Under the pieces are notes generated by a model. That model did no database searches. It saw nothing but the letters and a program-made list of their open reading frames with translations, and had not been told where the DNA came from. From a virus (lineage: Duplodnaviria; Caudoviricetes), in IMG/VR virus record IMGVR_UViG_3300032247_000928, positions 1-64,000 of that record: DNA of 64,000 bases; one strand, given 5' to 3'. The translations under genes and the position numbers were made by a program. This document shows, in pieces, positions 19,608 through 63,457 of this stretch. The stretch's first letter is position 1, and every line of letters begins with the position of its first letter.

Positions 19608-19816
19608 TATCCTTCGGAAGCCTCTTCTTGTGCTTCCTTAATCTTCTCTGTAAGTTTATCTTCTACAAACTTATAGACACGATCAAAAGCCTGCTCTGTT
19701 GTTTCACCATCACGCTTGCTGTCAATAACGCCAAGGTCAAGTCTTAGTGACTGAAAATTTCCCAGGTTAAGAGTATATCCAAGTGTTACGTTTACCTTTG
19801 TTGAATCGTTTTCCAT
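19607..19816 (-). CDS. Hypothetical protein (69 aa)
   Basis: KVNVTLGYTLNLGNFQSLRLDLG motif; G-rich RBS GGAATGGGTGGGTA. Confidence 0.78.
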   Translation of the reverse strand: MENDSTKVNVTLGYTLNLGNFQSLRLDLGVIDSKRDGETTEQAFDRVYKFVEDKLTEKIKEAQEEASEG

Positions 19817-50867: not shown

Positions 50868-53285
50868 CTATGCACCGATCAACATAAGTTCGCTGAATGC
50901 TGCTCCACCTGCTGGTGTAATCCACTGAACTCCAGAACCTGTTGAAGAAAGTACCTGTCCTGATGTTCCTGTTGCTGAACCTGCTGTAAGTGTACCCGTA
51001 AGTGTAGCATTTGAAAGTGTAAGTCCTGCAATTGTTGTTACAGTTGCGCCAGATGCAATTGATGTTGAACCAAGTGTAGGTGCTGAGTATGAAGATACTG
51101 TTCCCCATGATACGTTAGTTCCATCAGATGTTAAGTACTTTCCACTTGCTGAAGTCTGTGAAGGAAGAACTGCATTTGCTGCACCTGCCTGTGTTGTTGC
51201 TCCAGTACCACCCTTATTGAGGGCAATTGCTGTACCAGACCATGTACCAGTTGCAATAGTTCCAAGTGTTGTAATATTTGTAGAACCAGCCCATGTTGAA
51301 ACTGCTGTATTTTCTACGTTTCCAAGTCCAATAGATGTTCTGTGTGTAGATGCTGATTCAGCACTTACAGTATTATCTGCATTGTACTTAGGGAAAGTAA
51401 TTGCTGATGGATTAGTTTGTGTAAATATATTTGCACCAAGAGTTGTAGCACCAAGATTTGTTCTTGCAGTTGCTGCATCAGTTGCACCTGTACCACCATT
51501 TGCAATTGGGAGAGTTCCAGTTACACCAGTAGTTAAAGGCAATCCAGTTGCATTAGTAAGAGTTCCTGAAGCAGGTGTACCAAGTACTGGAGTCACAAGT
51601 GTAGGGGATGTAGCAAATACTAAAGCGCCTGAACCAGTCTCATCAGAGATGATTCCAGCAAGTTCAGATGAAGATGTAGAAGCGTGTACAGATAGTTTAT
51701 CTGTTGTTACTACTAGTGTCTTTGATGAAGGAATAGTTGTACCGTTGACAGATGTAGCAGTAGCCACACCAAGTGCTGGTGTTGTCAAGGTTGGAGATGT
51801 TAATGTTTTATTTGTTAATGTTTCTGTTCCAGCAATTGTTGCAAAATCTGCATCAGTAACCGCTGTATTAAATTGTGCAATTGTTCCTGATACTGTATTT
51901 GAGCCAAGAGCAACTGTTTTATTTGTAAGTGTTTCTGTGGCATCTTTTAGTAATGTTCCATTTGCATAGTATGACTTACCTGAAGCAAGATCTATGTGTT
52001 CTGATGAAGTCCAAGCAGAAGTTGCATTAACCCAGTTAAATGTTTTATTTGTTGTGCCATTTACAGTAATACCAGCGCCATCAGCAGTAGTATTTGTAGG
52101 TGTTGCTACATCTGCAAGAACAATATTCTTGTCTTCAATAACTAGGTTAGTTGAGTTAAGGTTTGTTGTTGTTCCGTTTACTGTCAAATCCCCAGAAATT
52201 GTTAGGTTAACTGCTGTTGCAGTTCCTGTTAACGCTGGTGATGCAAGTGGAGCCTTATCAGCAAGGGCTGTAGTAAGACCTGAAATCTTAGACTGAGCAA
52301 TTGCTGCTGCAGAATTAATGTCTGCATCTACGATTGTGTCATTTGCAATCTTTGCTGATGTAATTGCACTATCAGCAATGTCTCCTGTGGCAATTGTTCC
52401 ATCTAGAATTTTTGCAGTTGTGATAGCACCGTCAGCAATATCTCCAGCAACAATAGTACCGTCAGCAATCTTAGCAGAAGTAATTGCTGAATCAGCAATA
52501 TCTGCTGTAGCGATTGTTCCATCAACAATGTCTGATGATGTAATAGACCCTGTAAGGTTTAACTTACTGTAAGCAATTGCTGCTGATGCATTAATATCAG
52601 CGTTAACAATAGTACCGTCAGCAATCTTAGCAGAAGTAATTGCTGAATCAGCAATATCTGCTGTAGCGATTGTTCCATCTAGAATCATTGTAGATGTAAC
52701 AGTTCCTGATGGTAGTGTTACAGTACCTGTAAATGTTGGGGAAGCAAGAGGAGCCTTATTATTAATCTGTGTTTGAATTGCAGAAGTAACACCATCAAGG
52801 TAACCAATTTCAGTATCTGAAACACCAGTTACACGAGCCTGAATTGCTGTTGTATCTACTGCTAAAGTTAATGTATTTGCTGCATCGTTATAATTTTTTG
52901 TTATACCTGTACCCGCAGTTAAAGCTGCATCAATTGCATCTTGTGAAAGTTCTGCAATGTCAGATGTTAGGGCTACTGTACCTGATGCATCTGGAAGTGT
53001 AATTGTGCGATCCGCTGTAGGATCTGTTACCTGAAGAGTAGTCTCGTATGAGTCTTCTGTTGCACCCTCAAAAGTAATGCTTGAACCAAATGATGGGTTT
53101 ACTGTTGAGTTAGAGTCAACGAAGTAATCAAGGTCAATCCAGTGATTTGTACCATCACCAATTTTAAATTTATTTGTGTCAGTTTCATAACCGATTTCAC
53201 CTGCGTTGAGGATTGGGCCATTGCCAGAATTTGTTGAAATCCATTGAGCAGCAGTACCTCTGCGCTGTTGCATTCTTGTTGCCAT
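50868..53285 (-). CDS. Fibre protein with Mtd-N-like N-terminus and internal repeats
   Basis: [12 protein letters not shown]....[23 protein letters not shown]-terminus; repeated [15 protein letters not shown] decapeptide units; Thr/Gly-rich shaft. Confidence 0.82.
52449..52679. repeat. Exact 75-bp intragenic duplication (52449-52523 = 52605-52679)
   Basis: AACAATAGTACCGTCAGCAATCTTAGC...GATTGTTCCATC occurs twice, offset 156 bp. Confidence 0.9.
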
Positions 53286-61707: not shown

Positions 61708-62121
61708 TTAAGATACCCCACTCGTAGTTCTTGTGCTTGCTGGAGAAACATCTCCTAATACGCATATCGTTCCAATTACTGGAGTCCAAGTCATTACCGA
61801 GGGACCATCTGGAACTACCGCTTGAAGATCAAAAGAAAGTTCTGCAACCACTGACTTATATTTTGTTCCCCAGTTTGCTGTTATATCTGCTGGGGCAGTA
61901 ACTGTAACAACACTTCCATTAGTTGTAACAACAAGTTCATCTAGAACATCTGCAATAGGGTCGTAGGCTGTTGCTGAGTAAGTCCAGCCTTCTGTATCAA
62001 ACTCTGTAACTTCGTCATTTTCAAGAAGGGAGACTGTAAAAGAAGCAGAGTCACCACGAACAACGGTCCATTGTATATTTGCTGGGGTGGCCCCAAATTT
62101 TTCTATCGTAGGTGAGCACAT
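61708..62121 (-). CDS. BppU-N-like Ig-fold virion protein, paralog 2
   Basis: IQWTVVRGDSASF...WTPVIGTICVLGDVS. Start ATG 62121, 7 nt after TGGTATAAT (62129-62137), leaderless. Confidence 0.65.
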   Translation of the reverse strand: MCSPTIEKFGATPANIQWTVVRGDSASFTVSLLENDEVTEFDTEGWTYSATAYDPIADVLDELVVTTNGSVVTVTAPADITANWGTKYKSVVAELSFDLQAVVPDGPSVMTWTPVIGTICVLGDVSPASTRTTSGVS

Positions 62122-62141
62122 ATCATTGATTATACCATAAT

Positions 62142-62200
62142 AAAAAGGACTGACTCCTAGGGGCAGTGGGGTGGGTAGAGAGCAACCTAGGAGCCAATCC
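62142..62200 (-). ncRNA. Putative ~59-nt stem-loop small RNA with C-rich loop
   Basis: TGTTATAAT (62206-62214) puts +1 at about 62200/62199, the first G of GGATTGGCTCCTAGG. This pairs (13 WC + 2 G-U) with CCTAGGAGTCAGTCC, followed by TTTTT. The 24-nt loop is UUGCUCUCUACCCACCCCACUGCC. Confidence 0.62.
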
Positions 62201-62214
62201 ATATGATTATAACA

Positions 62215-62476
62215 TTCATTTATACATCAGTTAGTAAACATCGTACCCCAATATATTAATTAGTAACAAAAAATTATAATTGGGAATTAAAATTATAATG
62301 CCAGAGTGTGTTGAAATTGTTATCAAAGAGTTATAAATACATATATACCAAATGTCCATATTGTCTCAATAAGCCAGAGTATTGATAGTGTATACTTAAA
62401 AATATAAAGAAAAGAAATAACTAACTAGCAAGATTTTAATATATCTTCTATATAGTATATGAGTAAATTATATAAA
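62215..62476. other. AT-rich non-coding region, candidate replication origin/control region
   Basis: Largest intergenic gap in the window; direct repeats AAATTATAAT x2 and GCCAGAGT x2; GTTAT-N6-GTTAT box; near the switch in transcription direction. Confidence 0.4.
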
Positions 62477-63457
62477 TTATTGTATGTTGGCGTAATCACT
62501 TGGAAAAGCACAATAATTATAGTAGGTGTCATCAAAATAAAAATTTGCGTATTCTTGAAATTTTTTTAGTTTTTCTTTGCTTTGCTCATTAGTTAAAAGG
62601 TTGCGTATTCTTTCGGTATTTTCTTTAACAATATCTCTGCCGTATTTTTTTTGTATATCTAGCAGATTTTTTCTTTCTCCAATACCATCAACTATATCCT
62701 GTGTATGTAAATGACTAATTACAGCCAACTCTCCAGGATAAACTAAAGTAAATCCGTTGTGTAATAGTTCCGATGTTTGCCAAATTTCTTCTTCATAAAA
62801 TAATGTATTTTCATCTAAATGTCTATTTTCTGCAAATAAATTATTTCCAAATATAAAAGCACCGCAAACTTTTGCTGCAGGAAGAATTTCTTCTTTTAAA
62901 AGCCTATCCTTTAATTTTTTTGATACTTCCGAAGGGTATGCATGACCAAATAGAGGAAATCTGCCATCACATACCCAAGTACTTTTATCAAACCAGATGT
63001 TATACCCAAGCACTTGCCTAAATAATATTTCCTCATATTCTCCTTGATCATTTTTTTTGTATGTGTAGTGTGCTGGTGTGCCCGTTAGTAGCAATTTATT
63101 ATTTTTTAATTTTTTTACCGCATACTCGTGTTTTTGTATAAGATACTCGTCCCAGGCATTAATAAATCTTGAGTGTGAATCAATCTGCAAAATATATTCT
63201 TCTTTGTTATAAAAACTTATTGGTAATTTTTTCCCAATACCAGTACCTATGTGATTTTTATAGTTATGAAATGATATTTTTACGTGTGTGTTATCTTTAA
63301 ACTCTTCTATTACTTTTTTATAATAGTCCTTTTCGCCAATAATGGCAATACCTAAAAATATTTTATCGGGATTATTTGCATTATTTATACAAGACTTTAT
63401 GGTGGGTATTAGTTCGGTGTCTCCACCAAAACAAGGAATTGATACAAAAATTGACAT
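62477..63457 (-). CDS. GT60-like glycosyltransferase, paralog 2
   Basis: IFVSIPCF.GD.EL..TI.SCINNANNPDKIFLGI, YILQIDSHSRF, GAFIFG, YEEEIWQT. Leaderless (ATG 6 nt after TGATACAAT at 63464-63472). Confidence 0.78.
   Translation of the reverse strand: MSIFVSIPCFGGDTELIPTIKSCINNANNPDKIFLGIAIIGEKDYYKKVIEEFKDNTHVKISFHNYKNHIGTGIGKKLPISFYNKEEYILQIDSHSRFINAWDEYLIQKHEYAVKKLKNNKLLLTGTPAHYTYKKNDQGEYEEILFRQVLGYNIWFDKSTWVCDGRFPLFGHAYPSEVSKKLKDRLLKEEILPAAKVCGAFIFGNNLFAENRHLDENTLFYEEEIWQTSELLHNGFTLVYPGELAVISHLHTQDIVDGIGERKNLLDIQKKYGRDIVKENTERIRNLLTNEQSKEKLKKFQEYANFYFDDTYYNYCAFPSDYANIQ

Follow-up and report, generated by a model that had tools for sequence, protein, structure and literature searches.

What is the short inverted repeat that sits between two promoter motifs, just ahead of a cluster of putative fibre genes, in the genome of an uncultured phage: an RNA, a signal acting on the next gene, a DNA site or part of a protein? 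Our analysis of a window of 64,000 nt (the whole stretch of DNA that was analysed) showed that it is a conserved, strand-specific, non-coding RNA hairpin located behind a promoter motif of the phage's standard type. To our knowledge, very few phage-encoded regulatory RNAs have been described, and we know of none from this kind of uncultured phage.

Organization of the locus

The window comes from a 79.9-kb virus record of about 35% G+C, estimated to be 73% complete, and its minus strand carries almost all of the genes. The portal protein is 44-47% identical to the portals of large Streptomyces phages, several of the phage genes appear leaderless and the promoters appear to be -10-only; taken together, these features suggest that the host of the phage is actinobacterial. 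No tRNA or tmRNA was found in the window. An 805-aa protein with an Mtd_N (major tropism determinant N-terminal) domain is encoded at 50868-53285 of the window, and the search for a link to a DGR revealed no reverse transcriptase in the 79.9 kb of this incomplete genome.

The element precedes the first gene of the fibre cluster. Its features are given below in minus-strand order; the relatives of the element fall into two clades, which are described in a later section.

62203..62476, minus: AT-rich spacer with TTATAAC/ATAAC repeats (62336, 62323), a candidate operator (blocks in 110 aligned spacers)
62214-62206, minus: P1, extended -10 promoter TGTTATAAT (read in the sequence)
between P1 and the 5' arm, minus: CATAT (read in the sequence)
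62199..62200, minus: predicted RNA start, at the first G residues of the stem (from spacing)
62200-62147, minus: hairpin, 54 nt (two 15-nt arms and a 24-nt loop)
62200-62186, minus: 5' arm, GGATTGGCTCCTAGG (fold and covariation)
62185-62162, minus: loop, 24 nt, DNA TTGCTCTCTACCCACCCCACTGCC, RNA UUGCUCUCUACCCACCCCACUGCC (fold and conservation)
62170-62177, minus: UACCCACC, common to clade 2 (cross-clade comparison)
62163..62176, minus: conserved loop core of clade 1, ACCCACCCCACUGC (invariant or near-invariant columns of alignments A1 and A2)
62161-62147, minus: 3' arm, CCTAGGAGTCAGTCC (fold and covariation)
62146-62142, minus: U5 tract (TTTTT), likely the 3' end of a 59-61-nt RNA (T content after the stem)
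62139-62129, minus: P2, TATGGTATAAT (TRTGnTATAAT), promoter of the next gene (conserved in relatives)
between P2 and ATG 62121, minus: CAATGAT (read in the sequence)
61708..62121, minus: 137-aa gene (phrog_1084, possible LtfC-like fibre protein), first gene of the fibre cluster

Read along the minus strand, P1 is followed by the 54-nt hairpin, the U5 tract, P2 and ATG 62121. The small-RNA layout that the initial annotation of this DNA had described is present in the sequence with small coordinate corrections, the hairpin proper being 54 nt long, or 59 nt with U5 included. Only one hairpin lies between P1 and P2 (6C RNA, discussed below, has two or more).

The AT-rich spacer before P1 contains blocks that are conserved in the 110 aligned relatives, and its repeats are likely an operator for a DNA-binding protein, or iterons. 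We also observed, in many relatives, a palindrome (TATAAC-N5-GTTATA) some 35 nt ahead of the P1 motif. Most relatives carry a co-oriented 94-aa gene about 200 nt upstream of the module. The 94-aa protein, apparently leaderless, has an apparent N-terminal hydrophobic (membrane) segment (G000 64263-64547, minus strand; L002:2371-2655). In the source genome, the 94-aa gene and the module are separated by two further genes, one on the plus strand (63522-64262) and one for a GlcNAc-type glycosyltransferase (62477-63457).

Two promoter motifs flank the hairpin

The stem starts 5 nt past the -10 hexamer of P1 here, and 3-8 nt past it (mode 6) in the relatives. These spacings suggest that the RNA would start from P1 at the base of the stem, which is where the initial annotation had supposed the promoter to be aimed; both the spacing and the hexamer hold in this phage and across the relatives. 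Among 121 unique contexts, the P1 hexamer is TATAAT in 111 and TATACT in 8, TG is present in 88, and the stem opens with a purine in 112. In clade 2, P1 reads TATG(G/A)TATAAT.

P2 is even more constant: TGnTATAAT was found in all 121 contexts, with an ATG 6-8 nt further on in 119 of them, in support of the proposal that the next gene has a promoter of its own. Since ATG 62121 lies just 7 nt past the -10 of P2, the 137-aa gene would be leaderless when transcribed from this promoter. Other genes of the phage appear to be organized in the same way. The motif TGNTATAAT occurs 14 times in the window, always on the minus (gene-sense) strand, with 6.6 copies expected over both strands; the whole record has 16 copies, each in sense orientation and immediately preceding a gene. 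At five of them, an ATG comes 6-10 nt later (-10s at 64565 in G000 numbering, 62137, 57322, 56663 and 46588, each given as the first base on the minus strand), which is consistent with leaderless mRNAs for the genes concerned, and most of the other sites have a 15-35-nt leader with an AGGAGG-type or G-rich Shine-Dalgarno (SD) sequence. Note that P1 shares this standard motif but precedes a hairpin rather than a gene. TRTGnTATAAT thus provides a usable promoter consensus for annotating this group of phages. As a separate observation, the ribosome binding sites (RBSs) at the gene starts 19816 (GGGUGGGUA), 20377 (GUAGGGAGGG) and 58810 (AAGGGGUAG) are unusually rich in G.

The stem covaries, and its wobbles point to the minus strand

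As an RNA of the minus strand, the hairpin folds with -27.7 kcal/mol (z -4.57), and none of 200 shuffled sequences folded as well; the plus strand reaches -20.5 kcal/mol (z -1.26). Two of the 15 pairs of the stem are G-U in the minus-strand RNA, and the plus strand folds worse because there these two pairs turn into A-C mismatches.

We then asked how the stem varies in an alignment of 46 distinct sequences (MAFFT, with pairs assigned by RNAalifold). Twelve of the 13 aligned pairs have changes on both sides, and 99.0% of the cells at paired positions are paired, compared to 85% in shuffles. The covariation score was 0.618 versus 0.322 in shuffles, none of 500 shuffles reaching the real value, and it was 0.22 or lower when the partner column was slid by 1-3 columns. 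The alignment has 46 wobble cells, all of them G-U or U-G on the minus strand, and just 6 non-pairs. Since the wobbles are confined to one strand, the strand is fixed, and an RNA is favoured over a feature of double-stranded DNA. Both the strand, which the initial annotation had called from the G-U pairs possible on the minus strand only, and the covariation of the stem, which it had named as a check, have therefore been borne out, the former here and across the relatives and the latter by compensatory changes in 12 of 13 pairs.

The 98 distinct hairpins of clade 1 share one common fold, with energies from -18 to -29 kcal/mol, and in clade 2 compensatory changes were found in 8 of the 15 pairs of the stem. 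The element represents a genuine RNA family that Rfam 15 does not contain: searches against it returned only noise, at E up to 10 for the region and at E up to 1 for 8 variant loci, in keeping with the earlier proposal of an undescribed RNA. Literature searches found no mention of the element.

The module is widespread in uncultured phages

The complete module (P1, hairpin, T-rich tract, P2 and ATG) is present upstream of the gene in 136 of the 139 related loci with readable upstream DNA. The hairpin, with compensatory changes, occurs in well over 300 viral and metagenome contigs, the pattern scan covering at least 120 stretches in IMG/VR and at least 120 in JGI metagenome contigs. Use of a more distant query uncovered the second clade, which has a shorter hairpin. 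A covariance model from related phages had been suggested as a way of checking the element; the model R1, built on clade 1, detects the clade-2 elements at E = 6.5e-8 to 0.1, and finds a single copy in the 79.9-kb record. In bacterial genome contigs, 9 pattern matches were obtained, which is the number expected by chance, and all of them fail R1. Among cultured phages, neither the region nor the 137-aa gene was matched at the DNA or protein level.

Exceptions to the common arrangement were informative. Three relatives (L269, L270 and L272, at about 1400-1500) are without P1 and the hairpin, an unrelated stretch replacing this region, and R1 finds nothing in them; they nevertheless keep the T-tract, P2 and the apparently leaderless gene. 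Since this lineage retains P2 and the gene, the hairpin is not required in cis for the gene. In another relative (L102:3900-4800, on one contig with L240), an inserted gene of 254 aa, whose start is preceded by an SD (GGGGGA), separates the module from the 137-aa-type gene, so that the P1-hairpin-promoter module stays ahead of whichever gene is first. Finally, the nearest upstream ORF of at least 80 aa is divergent in L010, L039, L080, L049 and L052, and in these relatives the hairpin is thus not simply the terminator of the preceding gene.

The downstream gene starts after the hairpin

An ORF of 164 aa runs from ATG 62202 through the hairpin (61708-62202). This ORF is an over-extension, and the true gene is 61708-62121, encoding 137 aa; correcting this start is a first practical outcome of the analysis. 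The only matching PHROG family, phrog_1084, aligns from residue 39 of the 164-aa ORF, and nearly all of the IMG/VR relatives (best 80 of 496) align from M28 (MCSPTIEK). An upstream in-frame start without an intervening stop exists in just 16 of 151 distinct contexts, the frame being blocked or start-less in the other 135, and ATG 62202 is only 3 nt past the -10 of P1. The non-coding status assumed in the initial annotation is therefore upheld. A language-model look-up gave a weak lead to an LtfC-type fibre protein for the 137-aa product, and collagen-like and fn3/Gly-rich fibre genes are located downstream of it. In most of the relatives seen, position 2 of the 137-aa protein is Cys.

Probable termination at the U-tract

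As in intrinsic terminators, a G+C-rich stem is directly followed by a U-tract (U5 here). The initial annotation had treated this tract as a constant part of the element, which it is not: at least 5 T are present in the 8 nt past the stem in 89 of 121 variants (74%), and the remaining 32 have 4 U or fewer. L095 and L115 have essentially no U-tract, their tails being CUUAUAAGAAA and CUUACAAGAAA, respectively. The U-tracts of clade 2, in contrast, are very good. For comparison, the other promoters of the phage have about 2 T in the matching window (hand count). Termination at the hairpin and U-tract is probable, and may be partial. It is not certain, because the hairpin-less relatives also retain the T-tract before P2 and because the tails are weak in 32 of 121 variants. 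Note that a terminator scan of the region did not call the hairpin, and that the ends of metagenome contigs showed no pile-up at the predicted RNA ends.

The loop is the most conserved part of the hairpin

The loop of the hairpin contains 13 C in 24 nt, and the minimum-energy fold leaves it open apart from an inner helix of 2 bp. In both clades it is pyrimidine-rich and nearly G-free, with a fixed UACCCACC. The clade-2 loop reads ..UCUCU(U)CAUACCCACC..; all 24 clade-2 sequences share an unchanged AUACCCACC. The length of the loop ranges from 15 to 24 nt around an invariant core, whereas the loop of an intrinsic terminator would be expected to have 3-8 nt and to vary freely. Since the arms drift while the loop core remains more than 90% conserved, we read the loop as the functional surface of the element. 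The distance from UACCCACC to the -10 of P2 differs by 8 nt between the clades (clade 1, 35 nt; clade 2, 27 nt; hand count), which makes a fixed DNA site serving P2 unlikely.

If the loop is a functional surface, what does it recognise? The own record and three complete relatives (G001-G003) were scanned for sites complementary to each genome's own loop. The strong duplex sites were mostly runs of Gly or Trp-Gly-Gly codons inside genes. When the target prediction advised by the initial annotation was run on the start regions of phage genes, the real loop did better than shuffled loops in one of the four genomes: 0 of 100 shuffled loops beat it in G003, compared to 36-62 of 100 in the other three.

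The sole recurrent intergenic site was the RBS, (A/G)UGGGGUGA, of a gene for a 100-aa acidic protein located about 29 kb upstream (L299:14637-14939 in G003; L309-L383), whose RBS is near-invariant while its start codon alternates between ATG and GTG; this RBS was not found in the incomplete G000 record. Among sites inside the phage it offers the best match to the loop, although a weak one; in G003 it is the top non-self site, with -27.1 kcal/mol and 11 perfect pairs. In about 80 relatives, however, its complementarity to the loop extends over just 7-9 nt, and no covariation was detected between the loop and this RBS (T1). Moreover, in G004 the SD of the 100-aa gene becomes GGGGUC and the loop is unchanged.

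Several other candidates were rejected. The RBS GGGUGGGUA at 19816 has a 9-nt match to the loop that is lost in G002 and G003; the GGTGAGTATGA sites of clade 2 lie in coding sequence; the G-rich arm of a pseudoknot copy at a gene end, near genome position 72377, is merely one strand of its own stem; and shuffled versions of the loop pair with the phage tRNA-Asp at least as well as the real loop does. A 9-nt stretch of the clade-1 loop, 62163-62171 (CCCCACUGC), has its complement in GCAGUGGGG of bacterial 16S rRNA (about positions 354-362); the clade-2 loop has no such stretch, and the match is probably a coincidence. In summary, no supported conserved target was found inside the phage, in its own record or in G001-G003.

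Possible functions of the hairpin RNA

Our preferred reading, to which we give a probability of about 40%, is that the element is a short, independently transcribed hairpin RNA whose exposed C-rich loop recognises a partner in trans, in the manner of 6C RNA. We favour an independent RNA because a promoter lies 5 nt before a covarying stem, the exposed loop is invariant, the tail is U-rich and the next gene has a separate promoter. According to this scheme, the host RNA polymerase would initiate from P1, at the G that opens the stem, and would mostly stop at the hairpin and U-tract, giving an RNA of about 59 nt. This RNA should be stable, since it would be almost wholly one hairpin from its 5' end. 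The stem would serve only to display the loop, of which the core UACCCACC, extended to ACCCACCCCACUGC in clade 1, is held constant. The loop would act in trans, most likely by G-C-rich pairing with an accessible run rich in G, for instance a G-rich RBS, without a chaperone, as 6C does, and its partner would more likely be a host RNA than a phage RNA, with a G-rich, GGUGGGUA-like site. As a side effect, the hairpin and the U-tract may shield P2 from upstream transcription. A bolder version, possible but doubtful, is that a widespread group of uncultured phages, probably infecting actinobacteria, makes an abundant one-hairpin RNA whose invariant C-rich loop copies the 6C-like principle, either shutting down host genes with G-rich RBSs or titrating a host RNA-binding factor in the course of infection.

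Other readings have to be weighed against the RNA acting in trans. The hairpin might work in cis, as a terminator, insulator or attenuator that stops transcription coming from upstream genes or P1 and thereby keeps the strong P2 from being occluded, or whose loop is read by a factor modulating read-through into the fibre operon. The strong stem with a U-rich tail in 74% of the variants and very good tails in clade 2 would fit such a role, as would the constant position of the hairpin, always 9-14 nt before the -10 of P2, the co-oriented 94-aa gene upstream in most relatives and the L102 module, which remains ahead of whichever gene is first. A plain terminator, however, needs neither an invariant loop of 15-24 nt nor a conserved promoter 5 nt ahead of it; P2 appears to run without the hairpin in the relatives that lack it, the RNA resulting from read-through would carry an AUG without an SD, and about a quarter of the variants have poor U-tracts. 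For these reasons we judge an action in cis unlikely. Read-through from P1 could also serve the fibre operon differently, if the hairpin at the 5' end protected the longer mRNA from 5'-end-dependent decay. The hairpin does start at the predicted +1, and L095 and L115 are essentially without a U-tract; but a conserved loop would be superfluous in a stabiliser, the tails of most variants resemble those of terminators, and the AUG would be internal and without an SD in an mRNA that P2 would already supply in leaderless form. The chances of this explanation are slim.

A partner in trans need not be an RNA. By inference, the G-poor, C/U-rich loop might act as a decoy that titrates an RNA-binding protein of the host or the phage, for example Rho, a KH or cold-shock domain protein or a toxin RNase. 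The pyrimidine-rich, nearly G-free loop with its fixed UACCCACC in both clades speaks for this, as does the outcome of the phage scans, which found no RNA target, and with P1 equal to P2 in promoter quality, an abundant RNA is conceivable; on the other side, no candidate protein was identified, and we regard a decoy as quite unlikely. The antitoxin, sponge and origin-associated roles put forward in the initial annotation are likewise conjectural. Were the conserved C/G-rich 14 bp instead a DNA-level element, that is, an activator site for P2 or part of a replication origin, the inverted repeat would be incidental. The core does lie at -42 to -55 of P2 (hand count), and the upstream AT-rich spacer has its conserved TTATAAC repeats, yet pairing of the arms is kept through wobbles that are G-U on one strand, whereas the opposite strand, or a cruciform, would have A-C mismatches at these positions, and the distance from the motif to P2 shifts by 8 nt between the clades, which makes such a DNA element very improbable. 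There is hardly any chance at all that the element codes for the extended N-terminus of a 164-aa protein: although this window leaves the frame open, 135 of 151 relatives block it or have no start, the homology begins at M28 and ATG 62202 is just 3 nt past the -10 of P1.

With its small size, well-marked boundaries (promoter, stem, loop and tail), strong covariation and distribution over hundreds of contigs, the element is easy to synthesise and test. If the loop works in trans, as we favour, the phage would be following the principle by which actinobacterial sRNAs act through C-rich loops without a chaperone; if the element works in cis, it would represent a new promoter-terminator-promoter design ahead of leaderless genes.

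Comparison with known RNAs and regulatory systems

Short phage RNAs that run from a promoter to a terminator are known from phage λ, namely oop RNA and the 6S RNA of the PR'-tR' region; oop is antisense to cII, and the 6S RNA is a substrate of Q antitermination. Like them, the element described here is a tiny unit with a host-type promoter and a putative intrinsic terminator, located beside a long late or structural operon. In contrast to them, nothing lies antisense to it, a second full promoter follows the terminator-like hairpin, and there is no similarity in sequence or structure. The put RNA of phage HK022, a cis-acting antiterminator, consists of two stem-loops without a terminator-like tail. 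It is likewise a structured RNA made close behind a promoter where a long operon begins, whereas our element has a single hairpin, followed by Us and then by another promoter.

With intrinsic (Rho-independent) terminators, including the U-poor ones of actinobacteria, the element shares a G+C-rich stem of -20 to -28 kcal/mol and, in most variants, a U-rich tail. It differs from them in its invariant loop of 15-24 nt, in having its own promoter 3-8 nt upstream and in not always being located behind a co-oriented gene. The UCCC-loop sRNAs of Firmicutes, such as RNAIII and RsaE, use C-rich loops as anti-SD seeds, and are multi-hairpin RNAs with known targets. The likeness here is the C-rich loop; the loop motif and the phylum are different.

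The closest parallel is with the 6C RNA of actinobacteria (RF01066; B11 in M. tuberculosis), whose C-rich loops pair with G-rich RBSs without a chaperone, neither Hfq nor ProQ being involved (PMC6486639). The 6C model (gathering score, 47 bits) gave no match at E up to 10 in the region or in the whole record, a weak negative, as the model reached its cut-off in 0 of 14 control genomes, Corynebacterium glutamicum included. Unlike 6C RNA, which has two or three hairpins, our element has one; it is encoded by a phage, and its loop carries a different motif, UACCCACC(CCACUGC). As in 6C RNA, a stable hairpin is predicted to present a single-stranded C-rich loop, and the likely host of the phage is an actinobacterium. 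Judged by its sequence motifs and its conservation, the element also has the traits of a trans-acting sRNA: a promoter of its own, a terminator of its own and no ORF.
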